Origin: Chloroflexota bacterium
GTDB taxonomy: Bacteria; Chloroflexota; Limnocylindria; Limnocylindrales; CSP1-4
NCBI GenBank assembly: GCA_034435355.1
Contig: DAOTXE010000002.1
Span: 1-59,371 of the forward strand
DNA: 59,371 nt
Reading direction: 5' to 3'
The notes beneath the pieces are model-generated. The model was not told where the DNA came from, ran no database searches, and saw nothing but the letters and a program-made list of their open reading frames with translations. A program made the position numbers and the translations under genes. This document shows, piece after piece, positions 41,777 through 59,268 of the stretch (positions are counted from its first letter, which is position 1; every line of letters begins with the position of its first letter).

Positions 41777-41810
41777 CGTAGCAGCCGCCCGGCGTCGGGG
41801 GGCTGCTACG
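41777..41810. terminator. Inverted repeat between convergent glyQS and nfnB (likely bidirectional terminator)
   Basis: cgtagcagcc ...14 nt... ggctgctacg, 10-bp perfect stem. Confidence 0.7.
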
Positions 41811-43347
41811 CCTGGTGCGCGGCGGCCGCCGGGGAGGTCGAGAGCGCCTCGTCCGCCGGCGGGTACTCCCCGCGCAGCCAGGCCTCGATGGAGCCGGCGG
41901 CGCGCTTGCCGTCGCCCATCGCCAGGATCACGGTTGCGGCCCCGCGCACGATGTCGCCGCCCGCGAAGACCCCCGGGAGCGACGCCATGCCGTGCTCGTC
42001 CGTGACGATGTAGCCCTCCTTGTTCAGGGCGAGATCGGGCTCGGACGCGGTGAGCAGTGGGTTCGAGCGCGTCCCGATGGCGACCACGACCATCTCGCAG
42101 TCGATGACGAACTCGGAGCCCGCGATCGGGATCGGGCGGCGCCGGCCGGACGCGTCGGGCTCGCCCAGCTCCATCCGGATGCACCGGATCCCCGTGACCC
42201 AGCGGTTCTCGTCGCCGATCACCTCGAGCGGGGCGACCTGCAGCTCGAAGCGGATTCCCTCCTGCTCGGCGTGATGGACTTCCTCGACGCGGGCGGGCAG
42301 CTCGGCCATGCCGCGCCGGTAGACGATCGTCGCCTCGTCGGCCCCGAGCCGCTTGGCGGTCCGCACGGAGTCTATCGCGACGTTCCCGCCGCCGACGACC
42401 ACGACCCGGTGGCCGCGCAGGACGGGCGTGTCCGACTCCGGGTTCCACGCACCCATCAGGTTGACGCGGGTCAGGTACTCGTTGGCCGAGTAGACGCCCT
42501 TGTAGTTCTCGCCGGGCACGTTCATGAACACCGGCAGCCCGGCCCCGACGGCGAGGAAGACCGCGTCGAACCGGTCGCGCAGCTCCCGCAGGGTGTAGGT
42601 TCGCCCGATGATCGCGTTCGTCTCGATCTTCACGCCGGCCGACTGCAGCCGGTCCACCTCCTGCTGGACGATGTCCTTGGGGAGCCGGAACTCGGGGATC
42701 CCGTAGATGAGGACGCCGCCGGCGGCGTGGAAGGCCTCGAAGACGGTCACGTCGTGGCCCTTCTTGACCAGCTCACCGGCCGCCGTGAGGCCCGCCGGGC
42801 CCGAGCCGACGATGGCCACCGAGCGCCCGGAGGTGGTCTCCGGGTCGGGCTTCGAACGCTCCGGGTGGGCCATCGCCCAGTCGGCCACGAACCGCTCGAG
42901 GGAGCCGATCGCGACCGAGGCGCCCTTCTTGGCCCGGACGCAGCGTCCCTCGCACTGGATCTCCTGGGGACAGACCCGCCCGGTGACGCAGGGGAGTGCG
43001 TTGTCGTCGAGCAGCGACGCCGCCGCCCCGTCCATGTCCCCCACGCGGAGCCGCTCGATGAAGAGCGGGATGTTCACGCGCACGGGGCAGCCTTCGATGC
43101 AGACCGGGTTCTTGCACTGGAGGCAGCGTTCGGCCTCGAGCATCGCGAGCTGCTGGGAGTAGCCCAGGTTCACCTCGCGGAAGTTGGCCGCACGCAGGAG
43201 CGCGTTCTGCTCGGGCATGTGGGTACGGTCGATCGTCATCCGTTCCTTCGGGAGGAGCGGATGGTCGAATGCCGGGGTGAAGGCCGGCTCGCCGTGGGAC
43301 GCGCCCGGCTCCTCGATTCGAGGGTCCGGGTTCGGCTGGTCGGTCAT
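41806..43347 (-). CDS. nfnB: NfnB/SudA-type large subunit (GltD-like; NADPH, FAD, 2x[4Fe-4S])
   Basis: EAERCLQCKNPVCIEGCP, GRVCPQE.QCE..C, IVGSGPAGL, GGVL.YGIPEFRLPK, VVVGGGNVA.D, FAGGDIVRG; ATG at 43347. Confidence 0.9.
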   Translation of the reverse strand: MTDQPNPDPRIEEPGASHGEPAFTPAFDHPLLPKERMTIDRTHMPEQNALLRAANFREVNLGYSQQLAMLEAERCLQCKNPVCIEGCPVRVNIPLFIERLRVGDMDGAAASLLDDNALPCVTGRVCPQEIQCEGRCVRAKKGASVAIGSLERFVADWAMAHPERSKPDPETTSGRSVAIVGSGPAGLTAAGELVKKGHDVTVFEAFHAAGGVLIYGIPEFRLPKDIVQQEVDRLQSAGVKIETNAIIGRTYTLRELRDRFDAVFLAVGAGLPVFMNVPGENYKGVYSANEYLTRVNLMGAWNPESDTPVLRGHRVVVVGGGNVAIDSVRTAKRLGADEATIVYRRGMAELPARVEEVHHAEQEGIRFELQVAPLEVIGDENRWVTGIRCIRMELGEPDASGRRRPIPIAGSEFVIDCEMVVVAIGTRSNPLLTASEPDLALNKEGYIVTDEHGMASLPGVFAGGDIVRGAATVILAMGDGKRAAGSIEAWLRGEYPPADEALSTSPAAAAHQA

Positions 43348-44282
43348 GCGATGCGGTTTCCAGCGGCCGCGGCCGCCTCCTGTCTCTCGGCGGCGCTCGC
43401 GATTCCCGGGATCAGGCACGGCCCGGCGGCGGCCTCCCCGGCTCCTCCTGACTCCGTGGCCGCGGCGCGGCGGTGCGCGACCTCGAGGGCACGTGCCTCG
43501 AAGTCCCGGTAGGTACCCAGCCGGTCGGCGAGCTCGCGGAAGTCGACCTGGTGGGCATCGAACTCGGGTCCGTCCACGCAGGCGTAGACGGTCTTCCCGC
43601 CGACGGCCACCCGGCAGCCGCCGCACATCCCCGTTCCGTCCAGCATGATCGCGTTGAGCGAGGCAAAGGTCGGGACACCGTACGGGCGGGTCAGCTCGGC
43701 AACCGCCCGCATCATGGGGACCGGGCCGACGGCGTACACGGCGTCCACGCCACCGGCCTCGATCACGTCGCGGAGGGCGTCCGTGACGAAGCCGTGCCTC
43801 CCGTAGCTCCCGTCGTCGGTGCAGGTGATGACGTCGCCGGCGCGCCGGAGCTCGTCCTCGAAGATGACCCACTCCCTGGAGCGGCCGCCGATCACGCTGA
43901 TCACCTCGACGCCGTTGGCAGCGAGCCCGAGCGCGATCGGGTGGACCACGGCCGTCCCGACGCCGCCGCCGACGCACACCACGCGTCCGTGCTCGAGCAG
44001 CTCCGTCGCCCTGCCGAGAGGACCGGCAACGTCGGCGATCGCCTCGCCCGGTTGGAGGGCCACGAGGTCCTCGGTGCTCTTGCCGACGGCCTGGATGACG
44101 AGCGTGATCGTGCCCCGCCCGGGGTCGGCATCGGCGATCGTGAGCGGGATCCGCTCGGCGCCGGGGGCGCGATGGACGATCACGAACTGGCCTGGCTGGC
44201 GAATCTCCGCGATGCGGGGCGCCTCGATCACGAGGCGCGTCACGTTGGGGGAGAGCTGGGTCCGCTCGATGACGGTGTGCAT
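43344..44282 (-). CDS. nfnA: NfnA/SudB-type small subunit (FAD, NAD, [2Fe-2S])
   Basis: PGQFVI, ERIPLTIAD, DVAGPLG, VGGGVG, GPVPMM, IMLDGTGMCGGCRV...ACVDGPEFD. Confidence 0.92.
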   Translation of the reverse strand: MHTVIERTQLSPNVTRLVIEAPRIAEIRQPGQFVIVHRAPGAERIPLTIADADPGRGTITLVIQAVGKSTEDLVALQPGEAIADVAGPLGRATELLEHGRVVCVGGGVGTAVVHPIALGLAANGVEVISVIGGRSREWVIFEDELRRAGDVITCTDDGSYGRHGFVTDALRDVIEAGGVDAVYAVGPVPMMRAVAELTRPYGVPTFASLNAIMLDGTGMCGGCRVAVGGKTVYACVDGPEFDAHQVDFRELADRLGTYRDFEARALEVAHRRAAATESGGAGEAAAGPCLIPGIASAAERQEAAAAAGNRIA

Positions 44283-44463
44283 GGAAACTCCGGGTCTGGT
44301 GCGATGTTGGCACCATGATGCGCGTCCTGCAGGATTCGATCCATGCGCAAGGGTGCATGGATCTCGGGCCGAATGTCACACGCCCGCCGGGCCTCGGGCC
44401 AACCCTGCGGCGGGCGCGGTTCGGCCGGCCCGGCTTCCCGGGCGTGGGTTCGCCCGCGCGACC

Positions 44464-44673
44464 TCAGGCGGAGATGGCCGCCGCGGCCGCGGCCGGGATG
44501 ATCGCCTCGGTCGGGCAGATCTCGACGCCGACGCAGCCGCCCGAGGTGACGCAATCGCCGCAGATCTCGGGATCCACGACGTACACGTCGTCCGCCTTCG
44601 AGATGGCCCCGCAGGGGCACTCGGGCTCGCAGTTCCCGCACCCGATGCAGTCGTCCGTGATCGTGCTGGCCAT
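44464..44673 (-). CDS. 2x[4Fe-4S] ferredoxin (69 aa)
   Basis: AGGAG RBS; CIGCGNCEPECP and CGDC-x5-C-x5-CP. Confidence 0.88.
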   Translation of the reverse strand: MASTITDDCIGCGNCEPECPCGAISKADDVYVVDPEICGDCVTSGGCVGVEICPTEAIIPAAAAAAISA

Positions 44674-44716: not shown

Positions 44717-45154
44717 CTAGACGGCCGCGGCGGCAGTGCCGCCGGTCGCGTCGCCCGGGCCGGGGGGACCGCCGGCCGTGGGCTGCTGTTGGTGCCACTC
44801 CTGGTGCCCGGGGCGCGGGTCGCCCGGGGCCCCGGAGCGGACGTGAACGTGGGGCGCATCCATCGACATCCGGAGGCTGTCCTTGTTGCAGAGGTCGACA
44901 CACACGCCGCAGGCGATGCAGCGGAGCTGCTCGATCGCGAAATACCGATCCTCGCGCGAGCAGGTGAGCGCGACCGTCGGGCAGCGACGCGCGCACAGGC
45001 CGCAGAAGACGCAGGTGTCGATATCGAATTCGAGCGTCCCCCGGGTGCCCGCAAAGTGCGGACGCGTCTCCGTCGGGTAGCGGCGGGTCACCGGGCGGGA
45101 GACCAGGTTCCGCAGCGATCGTCCGACCATCGGCAGGTTGAAGGGGTTCGCCAT
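44717..45154 (-). CDS. echF: Ech hydrogenase subunit F (NuoI-like, 2x[4Fe-4S])
   Basis: PVTRRYP, RGTLEFD, CVFCGLCARRCP, CIACGVCVDLC. Confidence 0.9.
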   Translation of the reverse strand: MANPFNLPMVGRSLRNLVSRPVTRRYPTETRPHFAGTRGTLEFDIDTCVFCGLCARRCPTVALTCSREDRYFAIEQLRCIACGVCVDLCNKDSLRMSMDAPHVHVRSGAPGDPRPGHQEWHQQQPTAGGPPGPGDATGGTAAAAV

Positions 45155-45155
45155 C

Positions 45156-46241
45156 TCAGCGCTCCGTGCAGCTGATGCAGGGGTCGATGGTCATGATGAT
45201 GTTCGGGACGTCCGCCAGGTCGCAGCCCTTCACGAGCTTGATCATCGCCGGGATGTTGGCGAAGGTCGGCGTGCGCGCACGGAAGCGCTCGAGGTACTTC
45301 GTGCCGTTCGCCCGGATGTAGTAGATGACCTCGCCGCGGGGCTGCTCGAGCCGCTCGAACGTCTCGCCGGTCGGCAGGCCACGCACCTTGACCTCGATCG
45401 GGAGGCCGTCGCCCCTCGGCATTCGGGCCACCGCCTGGCGGATGAGGTCGATCGATTGCGAGATCTCGCGGACCCGGACGACCACCCGGGCCAGGCAGTC
45501 CCCGGCCGTCTCGAGCACGGGTGAGAAGTCGAGGCGGTCGTACAGGTGCGTGCCGGACAGGCGGGTGTCCAGCGGGATGCCGGAGGCGCGGGCCATCGGG
45601 CCGACCGCGTCGACGGCATGCGCGTCCTCCCGGCTCAGGATCCCCACTCCGGACAGACGGTGGCGGATCGACGGGTCGGTCTCGAAGATCCGGGCGGTCT
45701 CGGCGAAGCCGGCCCCGAGCTCCTCCAGCCGGGTGACGATCGCCGCGAGCTCGCTGTCCGAAATGTCGCGGCGCACGCCGCCGATCCGGTTGACGGAGAA
45801 GATGATGCGGCCGCCGGTCGTCTTCTCGAAGATGTCGAGGACGGCCTCGCGCGTTCGCCAGCAGTGCATGAAGAGATTCTCGAAGCCGAAGGCATCCGCG
45901 CCGAGGCCCAGCCACAGCAGGTGGCTGTGGATCCGTGACATCTCGGCCCAGATGAGGCGCAACCAGCTCGCGCGCTCCGGGACCTCCACGGACATGATCT
46001 TCTCCATCGCGACGGCGTACCCCATGCCGTGCATGAAGCTGCAGATGCCGCAGATCCGCTCCACGACGTAGCCGAACTCGGTGAACTCGACCCGCTCGAC
46101 GAGCGCCTCCAGGCCACGGTGGATGTAGCCGATGGTGGGAATGGCGTCCACCACCTTCTCGTCCTCGAGGACGAGGTCGAGCACGATCGGCTCGGGCAGC
46201 ACCGGGTGCTGCGGGCCCATGGGCACGACGGTCCGTTTCAT
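45156..46241 (-). CDS. echE: Ech hydrogenase large catalytic [NiFe] subunit
   Basis: GPQHPVLPEP, GYIHRGLE, L1 ERICGICS, EQPRGE, RTPT, L2 DPCISCTER with no C-terminal extension. Confidence 0.93.
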   Translation of the reverse strand: MKRTVVPMGPQHPVLPEPIVLDLVLEDEKVVDAIPTIGYIHRGLEALVERVEFTEFGYVVERICGICSFMHGMGYAVAMEKIMSVEVPERASWLRLIWAEMSRIHSHLLWLGLGADAFGFENLFMHCWRTREAVLDIFEKTTGGRIIFSVNRIGGVRRDISDSELAAIVTRLEELGAGFAETARIFETDPSIRHRLSGVGILSREDAHAVDAVGPMARASGIPLDTRLSGTHLYDRLDFSPVLETAGDCLARVVVRVREISQSIDLIRQAVARMPRGDGLPIEVKVRGLPTGETFERLEQPRGEVIYYIRANGTKYLERFRARTPTFANIPAMIKLVKGCDLADVPNIIMTIDPCISCTER

Positions 46242-46651
46242 GCCTTGTTCCCCGCCCCTTCATGTTTCGGGGGTGCGTCGGTCCTTCCGAGGGCGTCCAG
46301 TCGGGCCCGGATCGCGCTGGGCGCGAAGGGCACGATGCTCGAGGTCTTGTAGAGCTGGCCCCGCAGGTCGAGCCCGATCCCCGTCACGGTCACGCCGAAG
46401 AGCTCCCGGATCTCGTTCTCGTAGAGGAACGCCGCGCCGAAGAAAGCCGAGACGCTCGGGACCTCCTCGCCGGGCAGGACCTGCACGCGCAGGTGCTCGA
46501 GGGTCCGGCCCCGCGCGAACGACCAGCTGATATCGACGGCGCCATGCTCGAGGCCCTCCGCGGGGAGAACGCTCGTGGCGTTGATGATGGCCAGCCTCCA
46601 GCCGTCGGCATGGTAGGTGCCCACCCGGGCGAGAAATGCTTCCCTGTCCAT
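46238..46651 (-). CDS. echD: Ech hydrogenase subunit D (NuoC-like)
   Basis: VPSVSAFFGAAFLYENEIRELFGV; position between echC and echE. Confidence 0.85.
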   Translation of the reverse strand: MDREAFLARVGTYHADGWRLAIINATSVLPAEGLEHGAVDISWSFARGRTLEHLRVQVLPGEEVPSVSAFFGAAFLYENEIRELFGVTVTGIGLDLRGQLYKTSSIVPFAPSAIRARLDALGRTDAPPKHEGAGNKA

Positions 46652-47085
46652 CAGGCGCTCCGCTTCCGCTTCTGCTCGAGCGCCGCGATGCCGGAGACCA
46701 CGCCGTCGATGATGCTTTCTGGCCGGGCGGCGCAGCCGGGGACGTAGACGTCCACCGGGACCACCTGGTCGATGCCGCCCTGGATGTTGTAGGCGCGGGC
46801 GAAGATGCCGCCCGAGCAGGCGCAGGCCCCGACCGCGACGACGACCTTCGGATCGGGCATCTGCCGGTAGAGGTTCTGGATGATCTCGATGTTCCGTTCG
46901 TTCACGCTGCCCGTCACGAGCAGGATGTCCGCGTGCTTCGGGTTGCCGGTGTTCACGATCCCGAAGCGCTCGACGTCGTAGAGCGGCGTCAGGCAGGCCA
47001 GGACCTCGATGTCGCAGCCGTTGCAGCTGGATCCGTCGTAGTGGAGGATCCAGGGGGAACGCTTGAAGAGGGACACCGGCTTCAC
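46651..47085 (-). CDS. echC: Ech hydrogenase small subunit C (NuoB-like)
   Basis: SPWILHYDGSSCNGCDIE, NPKHADILLVTG, VGACACSGG, YVPGCAARPE; start is GTG at 47085 or 47076. Confidence 0.92.
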   Translation of the reverse strand: MKPVSLFKRSPWILHYDGSSCNGCDIEVLACLTPLYDVERFGIVNTGNPKHADILLVTGSVNERNIEIIQNLYRQMPDPKVVVAVGACACSGGIFARAYNIQGGIDQVVPVDVYVPGCAARPESIIDGVVSGIAALEQKRKRSA

Positions 47086-47936
47086 CTGCCCAGGAGGAAG
47101 AGCGCGAGGACGTTGCCGCCCGTGAACAGCAGCGTGACTGCCCACGTGGAGCGAAGCACGAGCTGCCACTTGGCCCGCGAAGTCGAGTTGTCGACAAGGA
47201 CCTCGAGACCGTAGGCGACCACGAAGGCGAGCAGCCCGAGCGGCACGCTCCAGTTGAAGAAGAGGACGACGAACGCGCACAGGAGCGCGGACTCGTACCA
47301 GTGGGCGATCTCGACGTAGGCGAGCAGGCGCCCCGACATGTCCGACGTCAGCCCGCTGACCAGCTCCTGGTGGGGGTGGTGGGAGGTCGAGATGTCGAAC
47401 GGCGACTTGCGCAGCTTGATGGTCGCCACGAACAGGAAGGCCAGGAGCACGCCGGGAAGCTCCAGCGCGACGAGCACGGGCGAGGCGAGGACGCCCCCGA
47501 ACGTGCTCGCACCGGTCACCTTGCAGATGGCCGCCAGCATGAGGATGAAGAACGGTTCCGAGGCCAGCAGGACGACAAGCTCGCGCTCGGCGCCCGCGAA
47601 GCTGTAGGGCGAGTTGACCGAGCCGGCCGCGAGGACGAGGCAGAGGGCCGCAAGGGCGAACACGAAGGCGATGAAGATCAGGTCGGTGCCCCCCAGGGCG
47701 AGCGCGCCTGCCGCGGCCATGAACCCGACATGTCCGAGGAGGAGCGGCTCCACCACCGGGTTGATCCGCCGCGCCTGCTTCTCGAACAGCTTGCCCACGT
47801 CATAGAACGGCTGCAGCAGCGGCGGCCCGACGCGGCCCTGCATCCGGGCGCTCACGATCCGGTCGACCCCGGCGAGGAGGCCGCCGAAGAGCGGGCCGAC
47901 GACGACGAAGAGCAGGCTGTAGACGATCGGGCTCAT
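47082..47936 (-). CDS. echB: Ech hydrogenase membrane subunit B (NuoH-like)
   Basis: DRIVSARMQGRVGPPLLQPFYDV.KL, SPYS..GAERE, KLRKSPFDIS..HQELV.G. Confidence 0.92.
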   Translation of the reverse strand: MSPIVYSLLFVVVGPLFGGLLAGVDRIVSARMQGRVGPPLLQPFYDVGKLFEKQARRINPVVEPLLLGHVGFMAAAGALALGGTDLIFIAFVFALAALCLVLAAGSVNSPYSFAGAERELVVLLASEPFFILMLAAICKVTGASTFGGVLASPVLVALELPGVLLAFLFVATIKLRKSPFDISTSHHPHQELVSGLTSDMSGRLLAYVEIAHWYESALLCAFVVLFFNWSVPLGLLAFVVAYGLEVLVDNSTSRAKWQLVLRSTWAVTLLFTGGNVLALFLLGR

Positions 47937-49864
47937 GCGCGCAGCACCATGCCGACCACGACCATCGCGGTGAGGATGGCCCCGCAGAGGACGACTCCGG
48001 CGCGGAAGACCAGCGCGCCGTCGATCACGCCCTCGAGGTAGTAGTTGCGCAGGGTCACGGTCCGCGTCCCGCCCAGCGCGGCACCCATCAGGTGGCTCGC
48101 GTTCGCCGTGCGCCCGCTCGTGTAGAAGTCGGCGAGGTCGTAGTCCTCTCGTCTCGAGGCCCACAGCGCGAGCGCCGGCAGGAAGAGGACCGCGGCGAGC
48201 ATGACGACCACCATGGCCGGGCTGAGGGCGAGGAAGACCCGCGGCGTCGCGGCGAATGCCTCGAGTGCGTACGGCCCGACCACATGGTCGGAGATCCACC
48301 CGAGGCCCGCGGCCACGCCGATCACGCCGACGGCGAGGACGATCTCGGAGAACCACTCGTAGCGCGTGACGCGGTCCTCGACGGAGCGCTCGTACGGCTC
48401 GATGGCGCGCATCGAGAGGATCTTGATCAGGAGCTTGCCCCAGTAGAAGATCGTCAGCGAGCTGCCGAAGGCCATGATGATGAGGAAGGCGGCGCCCGCG
48501 AAACCGGGGACCTCGAGGAACGCGCGGATCGCGGTCCACTTCGCGACCACGATGCCGAACGGCGCGATGAACATGCCGGCGATCCCCGTCAGGGCCAGGA
48601 CGCTCGCCCGCGGCATGCGGCTGAGCAGGGTGTCGAAGTTTTCCATGTCCTTGGTGTAGAGCCGGTTCTCCAGGGTTCCCACGACGAGGAACAGGAGCGC
48701 CTTGGCCACCGCGTGGAAGATCACGATCATCACGCCCACCCAGACCAGCTCGGGTGTGCCGATCCCGGCGCACCCCACGATCAGGCCGAGGCTCCCGATC
48801 GTGGAGTAGGCGAGCACTTTCTTCGTGTTCCGCTCGGTCACCGCCACCATCGAGGCGAAGAGGAACGTGAGCAGGCCGACGAACGCGACCAGCGTGCCGA
48901 CGGCCGACCCCGCCATGGCCGGCGAGAGGCGCAGTAGCAGGAAGACGCCGGCCTTGACCATGGTGCTCGAATGGAGCAGGGCCGAGGTGGGGGAGGGTGC
49001 GTACATCGCACCGAGGAGCCACGACGAGAAGGGCATCTGGGCGCTCTTCGTGATCCCGGCCAGGGAGAGCAGCGCGATCGCCGGGAGGAGCGCCGACCCT
49101 GCCGGTCCGGCGGTCAGCCTGGCCAGGTCCATGCCGTCGGGCTGGCCGGCCAGCAGAAGCATGGCCACCGAAAAGCCCAGCCCGCCGAGCAGGTTCATGT
49201 TGAGCGCGTCGAAGGCATAGCCGATCGTCTCCTCCGTCCGCGTGTAGCCGATCAGGAGGAACGAGCAGATGGTCGTGATCTCCCAGAACACGCTCATCAT
49301 CGGGAGATCATTGGAGACGACCAGCCCGAACATTGCCCCGAGGAACAGGAACAGGAGGAAGAAGAAGGAGGTGCGCCGGCCACGGATCATCGGGTTCGCG
49401 CGCTGGTAATCGCGCATGTACCCGAGCGCATGGATGCAGATCAGCGGCCCCACGATCCCGATCACCAGGACCATCACCATGGTCAGGCGGTCGAACCAGA
49501 AAAGCCGCGCCGGGTCCGACGCCGGCAAGTGGCCGCCCAGGTCCAGGTAGAGCGCGATCCCCAGCTGGGCGAGGGCCATGATCGGTGCAACCACGCGCCC
49601 GTTCTGCAGGCTGACCACCACGACGAAGACGGCGATGGCCGCCTCCGCCACGAGCACCAGGTGACCGGGCGTGAAGCCGCCCGGCAGCCCGAAGAAGATC
49701 GCATCGCCGTTGCCGAAGGTGAAGACGGTCAGCAGCGACGCCGCAGCCACAACGACGCACGCACCGACGACGATGGCATTCCGAAGGGCGCCCTGGGTGA
49801 CGACGAGCAGCCCACCGCTGATGACGAGCGGGAAGGCGACCAGGACGACCACGAGCGCGCTCAT
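47933..49864 (-). CDS. echA: Ech hydrogenase antiporter-like membrane subunit A (NuoL/MrpA-like)
   Basis: HALGYM..Y, WEITTICSFLLIGY, KSAQMPFSSWLLGAM.APSPTSALLHSSTMVKAG, KKVLAYST, FHAVAKALLF. Confidence 0.92.
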   Translation of the reverse strand: MSALVVVLVAFPLVISGGLLVVTQGALRNAIVVGACVVVAAASLLTVFTFGNGDAIFFGLPGGFTPGHLVLVAEAAIAVFVVVVSLQNGRVVAPIMALAQLGIALYLDLGGHLPASDPARLFWFDRLTMVMVLVIGIVGPLICIHALGYMRDYQRANPMIRGRRTSFFFLLFLFLGAMFGLVVSNDLPMMSVFWEITTICSFLLIGYTRTEETIGYAFDALNMNLLGGLGFSVAMLLLAGQPDGMDLARLTAGPAGSALLPAIALLSLAGITKSAQMPFSSWLLGAMYAPSPTSALLHSSTMVKAGVFLLLRLSPAMAGSAVGTLVAFVGLLTFLFASMVAVTERNTKKVLAYSTIGSLGLIVGCAGIGTPELVWVGVMIVIFHAVAKALLFLVVGTLENRLYTKDMENFDTLLSRMPRASVLALTGIAGMFIAPFGIVVAKWTAIRAFLEVPGFAGAAFLIIMAFGSSLTIFYWGKLLIKILSMRAIEPYERSVEDRVTRYEWFSEIVLAVGVIGVAAGLGWISDHVVGPYALEAFAATPRVFLALSPAMVVVMLAAVLFLPALALWASRREDYDLADFYTSGRTANASHLMGAALGGTRTVTLRNYYLEGVIDGALVFRAGVVLCGAILTAMVVVGMVLRA

Positions 49865-50491: not shown

Positions 50492-50498
50492 GCTGAGC

Positions 50499-51972: not shown

Positions 51973-52557
51973 GTGAGCACGCAGATTCGACCCGGTGCCG
52001 TCGGTCGACTCGACCACCGCTTCCTCGCCGAGGTTTCCAGCGCGGCCGGGGGCCAGTCGCGCCTGCAGATGTGCATCCAGTGCGGCACCTGCGGTGGCTC
52101 GTGCCCCTCGGCCGCGGACATGGACCACACCCCGCGGATGCTGTTCGCGATGATCCGGGCCGGGATGCGGGACGCGGTGCTCGCCAGCAACACGCCCTGG
52201 ATGTGCGTCTCGTGCCACTTCTGCGTCGTCCGCTGTCCGCAGGACGTCCACATCACCGATGTGATGTACGCCCTCAAGGGGATCGCGGCCAGGACCGGCT
52301 CCAGTCCGGATTCCAAGGCGCCCGAGTTCTCGCGCGTCTTCGTCGAGAACATCTCGACGTACGGCCGGAGCTTCGAGGTGGGCCTCGTGGCACGGCATTA
52401 CCTGCGCCACCAGGTCCGGCGGCTCCCGAGCATGGCCCCGATGGGCATCGGGATGTTCGCACGTGGTCGCATCGGGCTGATGCCCAAGCGGATCCGCGGA
52501 GTCGACGGGCTGCGTGCGATTCTCGATCGTGCCGAGGCGCTGGAGGCCGCCCAATGA
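51973..52557 (+). CDS. hdrC: Heterodisulfide reductase subunit C
   Basis: CIQCGTCGGSCP, WMCVSCHFCVVRCP; GTG start at 51973. Confidence 0.9.
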   Translation: MSTQIRPGAVGRLDHRFLAEVSSAAGGQSRLQMCIQCGTCGGSCPSAADMDHTPRMLFAMIRAGMRDAVLASNTPWMCVSCHFCVVRCPQDVHITDVMYALKGIAARTGSSPDSKAPEFSRVFVENISTYGRSFEVGLVARHYLRHQVRRLPSMAPMGIGMFARGRIGLMPKRIRGVDGLRAILDRAEALEAAQ

Positions 52558-53642
52558 ACACGTTCCTGTACTACCCGGGATGCTCGATGGAGGGCACCGC
52601 CCGGGCCTACCAGGCGTCGCTCGACGTCGTGTGCAACGTCCTCGGCGTGCGCCTGCAGGAGATCGACGACTGGAACTGCTGCGGCGCGACGGAGTACGCG
52701 GGGATCAGCCTGTTCCGGTCTCACGCCCTCATCGGGCGCAACCTCGCCCTGGCGGAGGCGCAATCGGGCTCGATCGCCGGCTCCGAGGGGGCGGCGGCCG
52801 GCGGCGTCGAGGCCGTCAAGGCGGCCGGTGAAGTGCGTGCGCGCCGCGTGGAGACGGTCGTCGCCCCCTGTAGCGCCTGCTACCTCAACCTGGCCAAGAC
52901 CGACGCCTACCTGCGCGACAATTCCGTGCTCGCCCGAGGCGTGAACGAGGCCCTCGGCGCTGCCGGCCTCCACTACACCCCGGGGGCCGTGCGGGTACGC
53001 CACCTCCTCGACGTCCTGGTCGACGATGTCGGGCTGGACGCGATCGCCGGCCGCGTGTCGCGACCGCTCAGCGGCTTGCGGGTCGCGCCCTATCTCGGCT
53101 GCATGCTCACGCGCCCGGACCTGGACGAGCGCTGGCCGATCCGCGAGCACCCGCTGGTGTTCGACCGGCTGCTCGAAGCGCTGGGCGCCGAGGTGATCGA
53201 CTTCCCGCTCAAGACCGACTGCTGCGGCGGTCACATGACGCAGATCAGCCCCGGGACCGGGTTCGAGCTCATTCGACGTCTCGTCCACGAGGCGACTGCC
53301 CGGCACGCGGACATCATGGCCACGGTCTGCCCGATGTGCCAGATGAACGTCGACGCCTACCAGGGCGAGATGAACCGGTACTTCCGGACCCATTACTCGA
53401 TGCCGATCCTGTTCTTCACGCAGCTCATGGGCCTCAGCTTCGGCGCGACCGCGAGCGAGGTGTCGATCGGGACGGAGCTCGTCGATGCGGGGCCGGCGCT
53501 CGCCCGGATCGGGATCGAGGTTCCGCAGGCGGACGTTGATGCGGCTGCTGCCGGGGCGGCCGAGGTCGCCCGCCAGGCCCGAAGCCGACGCTCCAAGGCG
53601 TTGCCGATGCCGCGAATGCCGGGCAAGGAGAACCGACCATGA
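52554..53642 (+). CDS. hdrB: Heterodisulfide reductase subunit B (two CCG domains)
   Basis: YYPGCS, DWNCCGA, PCSAC, YLGC, DCCGG, CPMCQ.N.D, ILFFTQL.GL. Confidence 0.93.
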   Translation: MNTFLYYPGCSMEGTARAYQASLDVVCNVLGVRLQEIDDWNCCGATEYAGISLFRSHALIGRNLALAEAQSGSIAGSEGAAAGGVEAVKAAGEVRARRVETVVAPCSACYLNLAKTDAYLRDNSVLARGVNEALGAAGLHYTPGAVRVRHLLDVLVDDVGLDAIAGRVSRPLSGLRVAPYLGCMLTRPDLDERWPIREHPLVFDRLLEALGAEVIDFPLKTDCCGGHMTQISPGTGFELIRRLVHEATARHADIMATVCPMCQMNVDAYQGEMNRYFRTHYSMPILFFTQLMGLSFGATASEVSIGTELVDAGPALARIGIEVPQADVDAAAAGAAEVARQARSRRSKALPMPRMPGKENRP

Positions 53643-55663
53643 GCCAGGCGGAGCGGATCGGGGTCTACATCTGCCACTGCGGGACGAACATCGCCGGCGT
53701 CGTTGACGTCGAGGCGGTCCGCGATTTCGCGGGCGACGCGCTCGCCGGACGCGGTGTCGTCGTGGCCCGGGATTCGAAGTTCATGTGCTCGAGCCTCGGA
53801 CAGGAGCTGATCGAGAAGGACATCGCCGAGCAGGGTCTGACCGGTGTGGTGGTGGGCGCCTGCTCGCCGCACATGCACGAGGCGACGTTCCGCGGTGCGT
53901 GCGCCCGCGCCGGGCTCAACCCGTACCTGTGCGAGCTGGTCTCGCTCCGCGAGCACGTCTCGTGGGTGCACACCGACCACGCCATGGCGACGGCAAAAGC
54001 GAAGGCCATCGTCACGAGCGGCGTGGAGCGGGTGCGCCAGTCGGTGCCGCTTGAGCCGATCCGGGTTCCCATCAACGCGTCGACGCTCGTCGTGGGCGGC
54101 GGCATCACCGGCATCCAGGCCGCCCTGGAGCTGGCCGACGCCGGGCATCGCGTCTATCTCGTCGAGCGCCAGGCATCGATCGGCGGCCACATGGCCCAGT
54201 TCGACAAGACCTTCCCGACGCTCGACTGCGCCGCCTGCATCCTCACCCCGCGCATGGTCACGGCCGGCAACCACCCGAACATCACGCTCATGACCTGGAG
54301 CGAGGTCGTGAACGTGTCTGGCTACGTCGGGAGCTTCTCGGTCACCGTCCGCCAGAAGGCGCGCTACGTGGACACGAGCCTGTGCACCGGCTGCGGCATC
54401 TGCGAGGAGAAATGCCCGGCGCGGGTCATCGACGATACCTTCGAGGCCGGGATCGGCTATCGCAAGGCGGTCGCCGTGCCCTTCCCCCAGGCCGTTCCCA
54501 AGTTCCCGGTCATCGACCGTGACAACTGCACCTTCTTCGAGCGTGGGACGTGCCGCGCGTGCGAGAAGCTGTGTCCGACCAACGCGATCGACTTCAACCA
54601 GCAGGACGAGCTCGTCACGTTCGAGGTCGGCAACATCGTGGTCGCGACCGGCTACGAGCTGTTCGACCCGCGCCGTGTCGAGCAGTACGGCTACGGCCGC
54701 CTGGCGAACGTGTTCACCAGCCTCGAGTTCGAGCGCCTGAGCAATGCCTCCGGGCCCACCGAGGGCCGCGTGGTCCTGCGCGACGGGGTGACCGCGCCAA
54801 AGACGGTCGGGGTCATCCACTGCGTCGGCAGCCGCGACCGCAACTACAACTCGTACTGCTCCGCCATCTGCTGCATGCAGAGCCTGAAGTTCGCGCACCT
54901 CGTGAAGGAGCGGACCGGGGCGACGGTCTACGAGTTCTACATCGACATCCGGACGCCCGGCAAGGCGTACGACGAGTTCTACCAGCGGGTCCTGGAGGAG
55001 GGGACGATCTTCGTGCGGGGTCGCGTGGCCGAGGTGAGCGACTCGCTGCGGCCCGACGAGGCGGACCAGGCCGGCCGGCTCATCATCCAGGTCGAGGATA
55101 CGCTCGCCGGGCGCCAGCGCCGTATCCCGGTCGACATGGTGGTGCTCTCGTGCGGCCTGGAGCCCGCGCACGACGCGCGGGACGTCGCCCGACTGATGGG
55201 GATCACCTGCAGCTCCGACGGCTGGATCACCGAGCGGCACCCGAAGCTCGATCCGATCGCCACCATGACCGAGGGCGTGTTCGCGGCTGGCTGCGCCACC
55301 GGCCCCAAGGACATTCCCTCATCCGTTTCCCAGGGGGCGGCGGCAGCCGCCCGGGTGCTGACGCGCATCCAGGCGGGCGAGATGCTGCTCGAGCCGGTCC
55401 GCGCCAGCGTGGATGAGACACGATGCTCCGGCTGCCGCATCTGCAACGCGATCTGTCCGTTCAATGCCATCCGGTTCCACGAGGAGACTGCGCTGTCGGA
55501 GGTGATCACGGCGCTCTGCCAGGGGTGTGGCACCTGCGTCGCCGCCTGCCCGGCCGGGGCGATCCACGGCACGGGCTTCAGTGATGCCCAGGTGCTGGCC
55601 CAGATCCGCGGGCTGCTCGCCAGCCCAGCCGTGGCGCTGCAGCGAGAGGCGGTGCTGGCATGA
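53639..55663 (+). CDS. hdrA: Heterodisulfide reductase subunit A (flavin-based bifurcating)
   Basis: GVYICHCG, VGGGITG, IGGHMAQFDKTFPTLDCAACIL, TSLEFERL, CVGSR..YCSAICCMQSLK, four ferredoxin-type Cys motifs. Confidence 0.96.
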   Translation: MSQAERIGVYICHCGTNIAGVVDVEAVRDFAGDALAGRGVVVARDSKFMCSSLGQELIEKDIAEQGLTGVVVGACSPHMHEATFRGACARAGLNPYLCELVSLREHVSWVHTDHAMATAKAKAIVTSGVERVRQSVPLEPIRVPINASTLVVGGGITGIQAALELADAGHRVYLVERQASIGGHMAQFDKTFPTLDCAACILTPRMVTAGNHPNITLMTWSEVVNVSGYVGSFSVTVRQKARYVDTSLCTGCGICEEKCPARVIDDTFEAGIGYRKAVAVPFPQAVPKFPVIDRDNCTFFERGTCRACEKLCPTNAIDFNQQDELVTFEVGNIVVATGYELFDPRRVEQYGYGRLANVFTSLEFERLSNASGPTEGRVVLRDGVTAPKTVGVIHCVGSRDRNYNSYCSAICCMQSLKFAHLVKERTGATVYEFYIDIRTPGKAYDEFYQRVLEEGTIFVRGRVAEVSDSLRPDEADQAGRLIIQVEDTLAGRQRRIPVDMVVLSCGLEPAHDARDVARLMGITCSSDGWITERHPKLDPIATMTEGVFAAGCATGPKDIPSSVSQGAAAAARVLTRIQAGEMLLEPVRASVDETRCSGCRICNAICPFNAIRFHEETALSEVITALCQGCGTCVAACPAGAIHGTGFSDAQVLAQIRGLLASPAVALQREAVLA

Positions 55664-56211
55664 GCCACGTTGCAGGCGAGCGCCCGGACGGGGCCCCCTT
55701 CGAGCCGGTGATCATCGGCTTCACGTGCAACTGGTGCAGCTACCGTGCGGCCGACCTGGCCGGGACCGCGCGCCTGAAGTACCCGCCCAACATCAGCCTC
55801 GTCCGGCTGATGTGCTCGGGACGGCTCGATCCGGCGTTCGTGCTCGAGGCGTTCGCGCGCGGCGCGGACGGCGTGCTGGTGACCGGTTGCTGGCCGGGCG
55901 ACTGCCACTACCTTGAGCAGAACTACTACGCGCTGCGCCGTTTCCAGCTGCTGAAGCGGACCATGGCCGGGCTGGGCCTGGAGGTGCAGCGCCTCAGGCT
56001 CGTGTGGGCCAGCGCTGCGGAGGGTGCGCGGCTGGCCAGCGAATTCAGCTCCTTCGTCGAGGAGGTCCGGGAGCTCGGGCCGTTGCACTGGGGCGGTGGC
56101 CCAGCGGCAGCCGGGCCCCGCTCGACGGAGCCCGAGGAGATCGCGCAAGGGGTCACGGCGGCGATCGCCGCGACGATGCCGGCCGCGGTGGCCGACGAGG
56201 TGATGGCATGA
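55660..56211 (+). CDS. mvhD: MvhD/FlpD [2Fe-2S] subunit
   Basis: FTCNWCSYRAADLAG, RLMCSGR, ADGVLVTGC.PGDCHY, WASAAEG. Confidence 0.95.
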   Translation: MSHVAGERPDGAPFEPVIIGFTCNWCSYRAADLAGTARLKYPPNISLVRLMCSGRLDPAFVLEAFARGADGVLVTGCWPGDCHYLEQNYYALRRFQLLKRTMAGLGLEVQRLRLVWASAAEGARLASEFSSFVEEVRELGPLHWGGGPAAAGPRSTEPEEIAQGVTAAIAATMPAAVADEVMA

Positions 56212-57284
56212 CGGGCGACGCGCGGCCTCGCTTCGCGATGTACTGGGGAGCCGCCTGCGGCGGCTGCGACATCGCCGTGCTCAACCTCAACGAGAAGCTG
56301 CTGGACGTGGCGGCCCGCTTCGAGATCGCGTTCTGGCCGGCCGTCGTCGACGTGAAGTACGCCGACCTCGAGGCGATGCCGGACAAGTCGATCCTGCTCA
56401 CCCTGTTCAGCGGCGGCATTCGCAACTCCGAGAACGAGGAGATCGCCCGACTGCTGCGCCGCAAGAGCCAGCTGCTTGTTGCCTTCGGTGCCTGCGCAAC
56501 CGAGGGCGGCATCCCCGGGCTGGCCAACCTGTCCAGTCCCGCCGAGATCTACGCCGCCGTTTACGACGACGGGCTCTCCACGGTGAACCCCGACGGCGTG
56601 CGCCCGGTGACACGCATGACCGTCCAGGAAGGAAAGCTCCACCTGCCGACGTTCCAGCATCTCGTCCGGACCCTGGACCAGGTGGTCCCGGTCGACTACT
56701 ACGTGCCCGGCTGCCCTCCGGAGACCGCCCGGATCGCCGAGGTCATGGACGTCGTGATGGCGGTCCTCGACGGGAAGGCCGAGCTGCCGCCGCCGGGGTC
56801 GGTCCTCGGGGCCGGCACGTCGACGGTGTGCGACGAGTGCACCCGCGAGCGGCACGAGAAGCGGCTGCCGGCGTTCGTTCGCCTCCAGTCGTTGGCGCAC
56901 GTGGACCCGAACCTGTGCCTCCTCGAGCAGGGCATCCCCTGCAACGGTCCGGCGACGCGCTCCGGTTGTGGCGCCCTCTGCCCGGCCGCGGGGGCCCAGT
57001 GCATCGGCTGCTACGGATCGGCCGACGGCACGGGCGACCAGGGCGCCCGCCTGCTGTCCGCGTTCGCCTCGATCGTCGAAGCGCGCGATCCGTTCGACAT
57101 CGACCTGGCGCTGGCGGGCATCGCCGACCCGGTGGGCCAGTTCTATCGCTTCGGGCTCGCAGCCTCGCCGTTGCGCGGGGGGCGGCATGGCGTTGCCGCG
57201 CGCGACGACGGCCTGGGGGTCGGTCCGGTCGAGCCGGCGGAGTCGGATGCCGGGCGCGAGCTCGTCGCCGGCGCGGCGAGGTAG
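56208..57284 (+). CDS. mvhG: Group 3c [NiFe]-hydrogenase small subunit
   Basis: WGAACGGCD, AFGACA..GGIPGL, VPGCPP, VCDEC, CLLEQG.PC.GPATRSGCGALCP..CIGCYG; ATG at 56208. Confidence 0.92.
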   Translation: MTGDARPRFAMYWGAACGGCDIAVLNLNEKLLDVAARFEIAFWPAVVDVKYADLEAMPDKSILLTLFSGGIRNSENEEIARLLRRKSQLLVAFGACATEGGIPGLANLSSPAEIYAAVYDDGLSTVNPDGVRPVTRMTVQEGKLHLPTFQHLVRTLDQVVPVDYYVPGCPPETARIAEVMDVVMAVLDGKAELPPPGSVLGAGTSTVCDECTRERHEKRLPAFVRLQSLAHVDPNLCLLEQGIPCNGPATRSGCGALCPAAGAQCIGCYGSADGTGDQGARLLSAFASIVEARDPFDIDLALAGIADPVGQFYRFGLAASPLRGGRHGVAARDDGLGVGPVEPAESDAGRELVAGAAR

Positions 57285-57291
57285 GAGAGCG

Positions 57292-58779
57292 ATGATGGAG
57301 CGAGTGACGATCGACCCGATCACGCGGCTCGAAGGCCACGGCCGGATCGAGATCTTCCTCGACAGCGACGGCGAGGTCGCAAACGCCTACTTCCAGGTCC
57401 CCGAGATGCGCGGCTTCGAGCGCTTCTGCGTGGGCCGGCCGGTTGAGGAGATGCCGCTGCTCACCAGCCGGATCTGCGGTGTCTGTCCGGAGGCGCACCA
57501 CATGGCGGCCGCCAAGGCTGCCGATGCCGTCTACCACGTCGATCCGCCCCGGCCTGCCAAGCTGCTTCGCGAGCTCCTGTACAGCGCGTTCTTCGTCGCC
57601 GACCACACGACCCACTTCTACGCTCTCGGTGGGCCTGACCTCGTCGTGGGGCCCGACGCCCCGGCCTCGGAGCGCAACCTGCTCGGCGTGATCCGGACCG
57701 TCGGCCTGGAGATCGGCGGGCAGGTCATCGAGGCGCGCCGGGCGGGACACCGCGTCATCGAACTCATCGGTGGCCGCAAGGTTCACCCCTGCACCGCCGT
57801 CCCGGGTGGTCTCACCAAGGGCATCACGGAGGAGGAGCGGGTTGAGATCGAGCGACTGGGCCGGTGGGCGGTCGAGTTCGGCCAGGCGAGCCTGGCCCTG
57901 TTCGACCGGCTGGTCCTGGGCAACCCGGCCTACCTCGAGCTGATCCTGGGCAACGTCTACCGCGACGAGACCTATTACATGGGTATGGTCGACCCGGCCG
58001 GGAAGGTCAACTTCTACGACGGCCGGATCCGGGTCGTCGCCCCCGATGGCGAGCTGCACGGTGAATACGCGCCGGCCGAGTACCGGGACTGGATCGCCGA
58101 GCGTGTCGAGCCCTGGACCTACCTCAAGTTCCCGTATCTCCAGCAGGTCGGCTGGAAAGGATTCGTGGACGGCAAGGACTCGGGCATCTACTGCGCCACG
58201 CCCCTGAGCCGTCTCAACGCCGCCGACGGGATGGCCACCCCACTCGCCCAGGCCGAGTACGAGCGGTTCTACTCGACCCTGGCCCCACGCGCCGCGGACG
58301 GCCGCAAGCGACTTGTCCACCAGCGGCTCGCCACGCACTGGGCTCGCCTGATCGAGCTGCTCTATGCCGCCGAGCGCTGGGTCGAGCTGGCGACCGACCC
58401 CGAGGTGGTCTCGGACAATGTCCGAACGATCCCCACCGAGGCGCCCACGAAGGGTGTCGGGACCGTCGAGGCCCCGCGAGGGACACTCACCCACCACTAC
58501 TGGACGGATGAGCGTGGAGTTCTCACCCGCGTGAACCTGGTCGTGGGGACGACGAACAACTACGCGCCGATCAGCCTGTCGGTCGCCAAGGCAGCTCGCA
58601 ACCTGATCCACCACGGGACGGTCACGGACGGGTTGCTGAACCGGATCGAGATGGCGTTCCGGTCCTATGACCCGTGCTTTGGTTGCGCGACGCATTCCCT
58701 GCCGGGCCAGATGCCGCTTGAGGTCGCGATCCGCGACGCTGACGGTCGCGTGCTCGACGTCCGTCGCCAGTTCTGCTGA
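57292..58779 (+). CDS. mvhA: Group 3c [NiFe]-hydrogenase large subunit
   Basis: IDPITRLEGHG, RGFERF, L1 SRICGVCP..H, EAPRGTL.HHY, L2 RSYDPCFGCATH plus cleavable C-terminal tail. Confidence 0.94.
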   Translation: MMERVTIDPITRLEGHGRIEIFLDSDGEVANAYFQVPEMRGFERFCVGRPVEEMPLLTSRICGVCPEAHHMAAAKAADAVYHVDPPRPAKLLRELLYSAFFVADHTTHFYALGGPDLVVGPDAPASERNLLGVIRTVGLEIGGQVIEARRAGHRVIELIGGRKVHPCTAVPGGLTKGITEEERVEIERLGRWAVEFGQASLALFDRLVLGNPAYLELILGNVYRDETYYMGMVDPAGKVNFYDGRIRVVAPDGELHGEYAPAEYRDWIAERVEPWTYLKFPYLQQVGWKGFVDGKDSGIYCATPLSRLNAADGMATPLAQAEYERFYSTLAPRAADGRKRLVHQRLATHWARLIELLYAAERWVELATDPEVVSDNVRTIPTEAPTKGVGTVEAPRGTLTHHYWTDERGVLTRVNLVVGTTNNYAPISLSVAKAARNLIHHGTVTDGLLNRIEMAFRSYDPCFGCATHSLPGQMPLEVAIRDADGRVLDVRRQFC

Positions 58780-58785
58780 TCGCCG

Positions 58786-59268
58786 ATGGCCGGGCCCACC
58801 CTGGTCATCGGCCTGGGCAACCCGATCCTGGGGGACGACGGGGTCGGCTGGCGCGTGGCCGACGAGGTCGAGCGCCGCCTGAGCGCGTACCCGTCACCGG
58901 CGCCTGCGACCGTCGAACGCCTGGCGGTGGGCGGGCTCGCCCTCATGGAACGGCTCGTCGGGTGCGATCGCGCCATCATCATCGACTCGTACCTGAGCGA
59001 CGGCGAGCCAGGAACGGTCAGGTCGTTCTCGCTCGCGGAGCTTGCGGGCCGCCCGCTCGGGTACCTCGATTCCGCCCACGACGCATCACTTGCGTCTGCC
59101 CTGGCCGCCGGCCGAGCCGTCGGCGCGCGCCTGCCGGACGACGTGGTCGTGGTCACCGTCGACACGGTGCCGCAGGACGTCTTTGACGACACGCTCACGG
59201 CGCCCGTCCAGTCGGCGGTCGACGCGGCCGCGAATGAGGTCATGGCGTTCATCGCCCGCGCGCCGTGA
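58786..59268 (+). CDS. Hydrogenase maturation endopeptidase (HybD/HycI family)
   Basis: VIGLGNPILGDDGVG, IIIDS, SAHD. Confidence 0.92.
   Translation: MAGPTLVIGLGNPILGDDGVGWRVADEVERRLSAYPSPAPATVERLAVGGLALMERLVGCDRAIIIDSYLSDGEPGTVRSFSLAELAGRPLGYLDSAHDASLASALAAGRAVGARLPDDVVVVTVDTVPQDVFDDTLTAPVQSAVDAAANEVMAFIARAP

Follow-up and report, generated by a model that had tools for sequence, protein, structure and literature searches.

A Conserved Ech-Ferredoxin-Nfn Operon Adjoined by an Accessory Hdr-Mvh Cassette in Limnocylindria of the Chloroflexota

In H2-dependent methyl-reducing methanogens, a loop of the Mvh-Hdr complex and an energy-converting hydrogenase has been proposed, in which methyl-coenzyme M reductase regenerates the heterodisulfide. 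In Moorella thermoacetica, the ech, nfn, and hdr genes are found at separate loci. As summarized in PMC5736913, the scheme for M. thermoacetica comprises Ech, NfnAB, and HdrABC-MvhD-MetFV, linked via ferredoxin and H2 cycling. Ech converts reduced ferredoxin to H2, and the reverse, while translocating ions, Nfn couples NADPH with the pair of ferredoxin and NADH, and the Mvh-Hdr complex uses H2 to reduce ferredoxin and a high-potential disulfide, with the stoichiometry of the partial reactions established for the methanogen enzymes (PMC5861303). A group 3c hydrogenase adjoining HdrABC has already been reported in Chloroflexi, namely in Anaerolineae and Dehalococcoidia (bioRxiv 10.1101/2021.08.23.457424), and in other uncultured bacteria, Mvh-Hdr has been inferred to supply a membrane complex with ferredoxin (PMC12590816). 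For bacteria without coenzyme M (CoM) synthesis and methanogenesis, the role of the Mvh-Hdr complex was left open (PMC8092238). Here, we analyzed a stretch of 59,371 nucleotides from a Chloroflexota bacterium (contig DAOTXE010000002.1; the whole stretch is hereafter called the window) and studied its locus at 41806–59268, which encodes Ech, a ferredoxin, NfnAB, and MvhADG-HdrABC. The results suggest, with moderate confidence, that this locus consists of a conserved Ech-ferredoxin-Nfn redox hub and an accessory H2-oxidizing, bifurcating cassette that shares the ferredoxin and H2 pools of the hub.

With the methyl-reducing methanogens, the locus would share the same formal loop, in which bifurcating ferredoxin reduction is followed by membrane ferredoxin:H+ oxidoreduction, but no equivalent of methyl-coenzyme M reductase was evident here. 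Ech, Nfn, and a bifurcating complex of the Hdr type make up a triad that the locus has in common with the Moorella scheme, whereas the Hdr module of Moorella is joined to methylene-tetrahydrofolate reductase and not to a [NiFe] hydrogenase (PMC5736913). The cassette is the same as that in the reported Chloroflexi clusters of group 3c hydrogenase and HdrABC; the difference is that in the window it adjoins Ech, hypAB, and Nfn.

The locus contains 19 intact genes, extending from the stop codon of nfnB at 41806 to that of a maturation protease gene at 59268. The reading frames were chosen among many spurious ORFs by third-position GC bias in a window of ~70% GC, and the third-position GC content of the locus genes was 0.85–0.98 in the called frames. 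Ten genes on the minus strand have the order receiver-echABCDEF-fd-nfnAB, and nine genes on the plus strand have the order hypAB, then hdrCBA-mvhDGA-protease. Starts and stops overlapped by 1–4 bp within ech, within nfnAB, and within hdrCBA-mvhDG, and the base composition was uniform along the locus. The Pfam and NCBIfam families were concordant for all 19 products, and the gene calls deposited at NCBI for this genome (GCA_037443625.1, JBBINZ010000003.1) were identical except for echC (141 aa in that record and 144 aa here). This gene content is far beyond chance. An earlier note on this DNA, made from the letters alone, had named the same gene set and coordinates, and both were borne out by the exact gene ends, the matches in Pfam, NCBIfam, and the Protein Data Bank (PDB), and the complete metal-binding motifs; the identity of every module (Ech, Nfn, Mvh-Hdr, and ferredoxin) was likewise confirmed by Pfam, NCBIfam, and solved structures. 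The picture of two divergent arms given in that note held for the strands, the gene order, and the motifs, but the plus arm consists of two units, because a 438-bp gap with a strong hairpin (26-nt arms) parts hypAB from hdrC.

The conservation of the locus was assessed by an EchE scan with one genome per species, and the window was compared by tblastn and blastn with the loci obtained, which are labeled with L-numbers. The scan returned 40 loci at 78–98% EchE identity, all from Chloroflexota and many named Ca. Limnocylindrales; the next best match was a metagenome-assembled genome (MAG) of Anaeromyxobacteraceae at 70%, and the remainder, at ≤63%, came mostly from Clostridia, along with a few methanogens and scattered bacteria of other groups. 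The host belongs to the class Ca. Limnocylindria, and the phylum Chloroflexota, which had been supposed from the letters, was thereby borne out. Fens, SPRUCE peat, and a Chersky sample appear in the record names of the relatives, many of which, by these names, are from fen, peat, or permafrost. The backbone ppdK-(fnr)-hypBA / receiver-echABCDEF-(fd)-nfnAB / glyQS-recO recurred in ~40 species-level Limnocylindria MAGs, whereas nfnAB lay beside ech in 0 of ~40 non-Limnocylindria Ech loci. The stable unit is composed of the receiver, echABCDEF, often the ferredoxin, nfnAB, and the divergent hypAB. As a separate observation, two contigs of MAG Co_metawrap_1715 (L006 and L018) each hold the whole nfn-ech-hypAB backbone; their EchE sequences share 94% and 91% identity with that of the window, and this bin probably mixes two strains or species.

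An assembly or binning artifact (a chimeric contig), or a set of decaying gene remnants, could also place these genes side by side. In favor of this explanation, the window ends at an assembly break, with an N run of ~100 bases right after its last base (59371) in the NCBI scaffold (~10586–10686 of L083), so the link from the protease gene to ppdK in the window genome rests on scaffolding. By its coordinates, the NCBI record does not extend over the first 16 kb of the window, which therefore probably stems from a different assembly of this genome. However, the glyQS/nfnB junction, which had been named beforehand as the place where a chimera might be found, was present in >20 independent MAGs, some with contigs of hundreds of kb to ~3 Mb, and the whole backbone was collinear in them, so the contig is not chimeric at this point. 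The hypB/hdrC junction was collinear in L004 and L007 at 89–90% DNA identity, the locus was uniform in composition, and all reading frames and motifs were intact. The artifact explanation is effectively refuted, and the probability left to it is negligible.

In contrast to the backbone, the Hdr-Mvh genes proved to be an insertion relative to most sister genomes. The blastn collinearity with seven loci (L003, L005, L006, L010, L012, L014, and L018) broke at 51497–51508, at the end of hypB, and resumed at the window-equivalent position 59472, upstream of ppdK. The resulting 7.97-kb indel contains hdrCBA-mvhDGA-protease; within the window, the inserted block covers 51505–59371, and it reaches ~59472 in the source scaffold, beyond the window end. 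The hypB-cassette-ppdK arrangement was shared only by L004 and L007, which represent two sister species. In L003, which has the most similar EchE (98%), there was no cassette, and hypB was followed by ppdK after ~100 bp (slot ~4597–4734). The same slot held a 281-aa gene in L005, L006, L010 (2091–2936), L012, L014, L018, L030, and L037, and this gene was labeled ferredoxin-NADP+ reductase-like from motifs read in its translation. No insertion scar is visible, since a search for direct repeats at both cassette ends found only 10-nt GC-rich matches.

In L025 and L029, the cassette occupies another site, with echF on one side and nfnA on the other. In L027 (~7523–8371) and L038 (~11619–12900), a lone maturation protease gene, 53–56% identical to that of the window, follows echF; it looks like a relic of cassette loss, because EchE needs no protease and L025 and L029 carry the full cassette at this place. 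Within the lineage, Ech and Hdr-Mvh came to lie side by side at least twice; this is the exception, not the rule, and the second occurrence points to some selection for proximity. Elsewhere, the cassette was intact in unrelated neighborhoods. Hundreds of copies from metagenomes and MAGs, named Anaerolineae, Anaerolineales, or Limnocylindrales, had an MvhA of 69–78% identity, and in 80 metagenome loci within this identity range, the Ech of the window was adjacent in none (0/80). The earlier note had treated the locus as a single unit, and this did not hold: only Ech-(fd)-Nfn and hypAB are conserved, and the Hdr-Mvh indel is missing from L003 and most relatives.

The six ech genes are consecutive on the minus strand and follow the Ech order A(NuoL)-B(NuoH)-C(NuoB)-D(NuoC)-E(NuoD)-F(NuoI). 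The echA gene (47933–49864) encodes a NuoL/MrpA-like antiporter-type membrane subunit of 643 aa (Pfam Proton_antipo_M and Proton_antipo_N), and echB (47082–47936) encodes a NuoH-like membrane subunit of 284 aa (Pfam NADHdh, E = 1.6e-30). The NuoB-like small subunit of 144 aa is encoded by echC (46651–47085; Pfam Oxidored_q6, E = 4e-34; NCBIfam NuoB subfamily, 139.7 bits with a cutoff of 116), and the NuoC-like protein of 137 aa is encoded by echD (46238–46651; Pfam Complex1_30kDa), whose position between echC and echE fits the Ech order. The group 4 [NiFe] large subunit of 361 aa is the product of echE (45156–46241; Pfam Complex1_49kDa and NiFeSe_Hases), and echF (44717–45154) encodes a NuoI-like 2x[4Fe-4S] protein of 145 aa with eight Cys in two 4-Cys motifs (Pfam Fer4 families; NuoI-type models as the top NCBIfam matches). 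In translation, EchE showed the motif RICGICSFMH and a terminal DPCISCTER with no C-terminal extension; both CxxC NiFe-binding motifs were kept, as in a true hydrogenase and not as in a Nuo or Ehr relative.

The EchE homologs at 78–94% identity carry the JGI name 'ech hydrogenase subunit E', and the EchE of echABCDEF loci from Methanoregula/Methanomicrobiales was 56–61% identical to that of the window. EchE scored 235 bits against solved structures, with MBH 6cfw_L and FHL 7z0s_E as its top relatives there and no Ech sequence among the PDB matches. Architecture, best matches, and source names point to a putative group 4e hydrogenase. A CooMKLXUH-type (4c) hydrogenase was considered and rejected, as the order NuoB-NuoC-NuoD-NuoI is that of Ech and not the coo gene order. 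Compared with the Ech (group 4e) of Methanosarcina barkeri and Thermoanaerobacter kivui, the window Ech is alike in its six-subunit order, in both CxxC motifs, and in a large subunit that stops at the Arg of the second motif without an extension. It differs in its host, a member of the Chloroflexota (Limnocylindria), in an operon that opens with a receiver gene in which the phospho-acceptor Asp is replaced by Glu, and in the continuation of this operon into ferredoxin and nfnAB, which none of the ~40 non-Limnocylindria Ech loci showed.

The receiver gene (49892–50281, minus strand) encodes a single-domain response-regulator receiver of 129 aa (Pfam Response_reg) and was kept upstream of echA in nearly all related loci. 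A BLASTP comparison of the receiver with CheY was too weak alone, and a multiple alignment (MAFFT) including Escherichia coli CheY was used. The column of CheY Asp57 was occupied by Glu in the window and in all ~30 Limnocylindria copies and by Asp in the Anaeromyxobacteraceae copy (L042), and the acidic pair, the Ser/Thr, and the Lys of the signature were kept. The receiver lacks the phosphorylatable Asp of a standard receiver domain, with the column assignment resting on MAFFT at low identity to CheY, and a conserved QDRD(D)GW insertion lies ahead of the conserved Lys. These features suggest that it may be a phosphorylation-independent pseudo-receiver. On the plus strand, the divergent hypA (50442–50843) encodes a Ni metallochaperone of 133 aa (Pfam HypA, E = 2e-21), and hypB (50845–51534) encodes a Ni-inserting GTPase of 229 aa (NCBIfam TIGR00073, 238 bits with a cutoff of 121).

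Downstream of echF, the minus strand continues with fd (44464–44673), which encodes a YfhL/FdxA-like ferredoxin of 69 aa with eight Cys for 2x[4Fe-4S] (Pfam Fer4). Its matches to the NCBIfam models FdxA_fam and YfhL scored under the cutoffs, its translation shows the motifs CIGCGNCEPECP and CGDCVTSGGCVGVEICP, and the gene was found in nearer relatives only. The nfnA gene (43344–44282, minus strand) encodes a PyrK-like small subunit of 312 aa (Pfam DHODB_Fe-S_bind and FAD_binding_6; NCBIfam NF004862, 366 bits with a cutoff of 220; P. furiosus NfnI, PDB 5jca_S, 294 bits), and nfnB (41806–43347, minus strand) encodes a GltD-like subunit with two [4Fe-4S] clusters (Pfam Fer4_20 and Pyr_redox_2; NCBIfam TIGR01316, 571 bits with a cutoff of 471.75; T. 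maritima NfnB, PDB 4ylf_B, 510 bits over the full length). The two genes are encoded together with a 4-bp overlap. As in the NfnAB of Thermotoga maritima (4YLF) and the NfnI of Pyrococcus furiosus (5JCA), there are two subunits, which matched over their full lengths, with the cluster and flavin motifs present and the NCBIfam cutoffs passed by both subunits; the difference is that nfnAB of the window directly follows an Ech operon with its ferredoxin gene. The neighbors of Nfn named in a review include [FeFe] hydrogenase, PFOR, and Rex, and a term search of that review returned no passage that places nfn next to ech (PMC6405883).

The cassette genes all lie on the plus strand. The hdrC gene (51973–52557) encodes a 2x[4Fe-4S] protein of 194 aa with eight Cys in two 4-Cys motifs (Pfam Fer4_8 and Fer4_17; top NCBIfam match CoB_CoM_SS_C, under its cutoff), hdrB (52554–53642) encodes a protein of 362 aa with two stretches of Pfam CCG, and hdrA (53639–55663) encodes a protein of 674 aa with FAD, N-terminal, inserted, and C-terminal Fe-S domains. 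They are followed by mvhD (55660–56211), for a [2Fe-2S] protein of 183 aa (Pfam FlpD, E = 1e-48), mvhG (56208–57284), for a small subunit of 358 aa (Pfam Oxidored_q6; top NCBIfam match VhuG, 192 bits), and mvhA (57295–58779), for a group 3 [NiFe] large subunit of 494 aa (Pfam NiFeSe_Hases). The last gene (58786–59268) encodes a hydrogenase maturation endopeptidase of 160 aa (NCBIfam TIGR00072, 93 bits with a cutoff of 47; Pfam HycI). The mvhA, mvhG, and mvhD genes adjoin hdrA, hdrB, and hdrC as hdrCBA-mvhDGA, with 4-bp overlaps.

HdrA aligned end-to-end with methanogen HdrA (PDB 8rvu_a, 676 bits; 5odc_A, 674 bits) and is of the full-length bifurcating type by domain content; its 809 bits against NCBIfam HdrA2 stayed under the cutoff, as the MvhD domain is encoded here as a protein of its own. 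The match of HdrB, the disulfide-reducing subunit, to methanogen HdrB (PDB 5odc_B) was weak, at 117 bits. Its CCG motifs were read in translation as CX31CC...CxxC and C...CC...CxxC. In its first motif, after the CC pair and before the CxxC, HdrB carries an Ala/Gly-rich insertion of ~28 aa (residues 71–101, ~52764–52857), which lengthens the spacing of this motif and has no counterpart in the methanogen chain 5odc_B; other Chloroflexota cassettes have an HdrB of 335–337 aa versus 362 aa here. The divergence of HdrB (117 bits, versus 676 for HdrA) suggests that its substrate may be other than CoM-S-S-CoB, the heterodisulfide of CoM and coenzyme B.

MvhA carries the motifs RICGVCPEAHH and DPCFGCATH, the latter followed by a C-terminal extension of 27 aa. 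Its top PDB match was MvhA of the Methanothermococcus complex (5odc_F, 376 bits), with the large subunit of the bifurcating NiFe-HydABCSL close (7t2r_D, 356 bits); its top NCBIfam match was VhuA at 352 bits, under the cutoff, and its homologs carry the JGI name 'F420-non-reducing hydrogenase large subunit'. The predicted 3c class of MvhA is drawn from architecture, best matches, and source names, and the synteny with mvhD and hdr is a stronger argument for it than the matches. The protease gene followed mvhA wherever the downstream stretch was present among the compared cassettes, and the protease is assigned to MvhA because EchE has no C-terminal extension. In comparison with the methanogen MvhADG-HdrABC (PDB 5ODC and 8RVU), all six subunits are present here, including MvhD, a three-cluster MvhG, an eight-Cys HdrC, and both CCG motifs of HdrB; the differences are the weakly similar HdrB with its insertion, the lack of a methanogenesis context, and a single cassette without the MvhB polyferredoxin. 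The sulfur-oxidizing sHdr system was rejected as an identity for these genes, given the known properties of sHdr: the HdrA of the window belongs to the long type with ferredoxin domains and is joined to a hydrogenase.

Some cassette copies outside this locus were observed in their own right. The copy in L085 (2999–5532) lies beside IS3-family transposase genes (HTH_Tnp_1 and rve); the place of hdrB is taken there by a 67-aa ORF without a CCG match, hdrA was called at 821 aa, and the copy may be disrupted. Among the cassettes L090–L169, two classes of HdrB/HdrC were present, ~50–69% and ~36–42% identical to those of the window, with HdrA at ~70% in both, which suggests that HdrBC may have been swapped among cassettes, perhaps changing the substrate. 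A sediment metagenome locus (L091, 11500–21500) contains a hydrogenase island with an Hdr-Mvh cassette, a cNMP-binding protein, a receiver gene, a partial group-4-type set (NuoD-like large subunit, NuoH-like, NuoI-like, and protease), and a sulfhydrogenase-like group 3 set.

Gene identities, motifs, operon structure, host lineage, core conservation, and the cassette indel were observed directly, whereas we infer in which directions electrons flow, whether H2 is cycled, and what the acceptor is. The reading that we consider somewhat probable is that of a conserved Ech-ferredoxin-Nfn redox hub joined by an accessory bifurcating cassette. Ech would act as a six-subunit, ion-translocating, ferredoxin-dependent [NiFe] hydrogenase, for which the neighboring fd gene is circumstantial evidence, and the hub would connect the membrane potential with three pools, those of NAD(P)H, ferredoxin, and H2. 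Under anoxia, in Limnocylindria of peat, wetland, and permafrost, Ech would vent reduced ferredoxin as H2 and build an ion gradient, while Nfn would balance NADH, NADPH, and ferredoxin. The hdrCBA-mvhDGA-protease genes would be a self-contained, horizontally mobile cassette inserted in the variable hypB-ppdK slot, and their products would form a cytoplasmic, electron-bifurcating complex that oxidizes H2 and reduces ferredoxin and a high-potential acceptor. This acceptor is probably a disulfide, though it need not be CoM-S-S-CoB. Hub and cassette would be coupled only via the shared ferredoxin and H2 pools and the Ni-insertion genes.

Several observations weigh against this hub-and-cassette reading. 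The 181-bp gap between fd and nfnA (44283–44463) folds very stably, at −94 kcal/mol for 181 nt, a value given without comparison to shuffled sequences, and because of this structured gap, nfnAB may be transcribed or regulated apart from ech-fd. The adjacency of Ech and Hdr-Mvh in two arrangements could mean that their functional coupling is tighter than shared pools. Furthermore, Limnocylindria have been described as having few hydrogenases and as mostly at least facultatively aerobic (bioRxiv 10.1101/2021.08.23.457424), so the anaerobic part of the reading draws only on the habitat of the clade and on gene content.

The interpretation in the earlier note was a dedicated H2-cycling respiratory loop with the net reaction of H2 and R-S-S-R' to two thiols and an ion gradient, which we regard as unlikely. 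In detail, Mvh-Hdr would oxidize two H2 and reduce ferredoxin plus a disulfide, Ech would return the ferredoxin electrons to H2 while pumping ions, and Nfn would tap ferredoxin for NADPH, a sequence of steps that seems no less doubtful; that such a loop might be a bacterial analog of the energy conservation of methyl-reducing methanogens is likewise considered unlikely. The loop is thermodynamically sensible, all three enzyme systems are intact within a 17.5-kb locus, their partial-reaction stoichiometries are established for the methanogen enzymes (PMC5861303), HdrA is nearly methanogen-like (676 bits), and Ech and Hdr-Mvh were juxtaposed at least twice at different insertion points. However, the loop would require steady regeneration of its disulfide, and no disulfide carrier or regenerating reaction is encoded in the locus or in the next 10 kb, where the neighbors include genes for a trypsin-like protease and an MFS transporter as well as ppdK. 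The divergent HdrB (117 bits) has an insertion in its first CCG motif, and the cassette, which normally occurs without this Ech, is missing from L003, the closest relative by EchE, and from most other relatives with Ech. In addition, the 438-bp hairpin gap between hypB and hdrC means that the ech and hdr-mvh units need not be co-regulated. The description of the locus as a complete circuit was therefore not sustained, as no disulfide substrate or regenerating step is encoded in it and HdrB is divergent; completeness had been an inference.

An extension of the same idea is that the peat and wetland Limnocylindria clade runs a bacterial hydrogen:disulfide respiration, in which Mvh-Hdr and the Ech-ferredoxin-Nfn operon would form an energy-conserving H2-cycling loop with a non-methanogenic thiol/disulfide couple that some further reaction would regenerate. 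We hold this to be improbable. In such a respiration, the repeated docking of the cassette by ech would reflect selection for the loop, and the Glu receiver would be a constitutive subunit or a regulator.

The opposite direction of electron flow was also weighed. In this H2-uptake reading, which we judge to be quite unlikely, Ech, driven by the membrane potential, and Mvh-Hdr would both make reduced ferredoxin from H2, and Nfn would use it with NADH to form NADPH. The equally doubtful purpose would be CO2 fixation or biosynthesis in lithotrophic or mixotrophic growth, by analogy to Ech in Methanosarcina barkeri. Ech and Nfn are reversible (PMC5861303), the ferredoxin-NADP+ reductase-like gene beside hypB in many relatives again links ferredoxin to NADPH, and CO2 fixation and aerobic oxidation of H2 and CO have been reported for the wider lineage (bioRxiv 10.1101/2021.08.23.457424). 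However, zero carbon-fixation or ferredoxin-consuming genes were found in the window or in the 10 kb beyond it, and spending membrane potential via Ech would be redundant if Mvh-Hdr reduces ferredoxin by bifurcation.

Scans of 41.5–59.4 kb gave zero sigma-70-like promoter sites and no more terminator-like sites than in shuffled sequence, both of which are uninformative in a genome of 70% GC. The Rfam scan of the whole window gave zero matches, and therefore no riboswitch in the 438-bp gap before hdrC. Shared operator-like repeats were sought in the receiver/hypA and hypB/hdrC gaps, and only short chance-like matches were found, plus the hairpin after hypB. The rest of the window holds housekeeping genes (a ribosomal protein operon, cdaA, glmS, acpS, tsaE/B, and recO), which places the locus in the core chromosome and not in an island. 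Two ORFs on the plus strand at 27159–28883 (574 aa) and 28880–29896 (338 aa) had good coding statistics and zero Pfam matches, and this pair sits in the GC peak of the window (75–77% versus ~69% elsewhere).

By their sequences, all of the enzymes are ordinary members of known families. Neither a Limnocylindria ech-fd-nfnAB operon nor its association with Hdr-Mvh was found described in the literature, and the clustering, which had been put forward as the noteworthy feature, stands in that respect; it is weakened by a core that occurs in ~40 genomes, by a cassette that is accessory, and by the prior publication of both the 3c-Hdr arrangement and the triad. The new elements are modest. One is an Ech-ferredoxin-Nfn operon that is specific to the lineage and has an atypical receiver; the other is a mobile Hdr-Mvh cassette, which twice landed beside that operon.

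The ech-fd-nfnAB operon constitutes a clear genetic link between Ech and Nfn, and the Hdr-Mvh cassette adds to the long-standing question of the substrates of bacterial HdrABC, to which the locus gives no answer. If the hub-and-cassette reading is true, a sizeable Limnocylindria clade of ~40 species-level genomes would possess a conserved, membrane-coupled hub for ferredoxin, H2, and NAD(P)H. As the class has been described as mostly aerobic and hydrogenase-poor, these Limnocylindria would then be candidates for the production or recycling of H2 in soils that emit methane.

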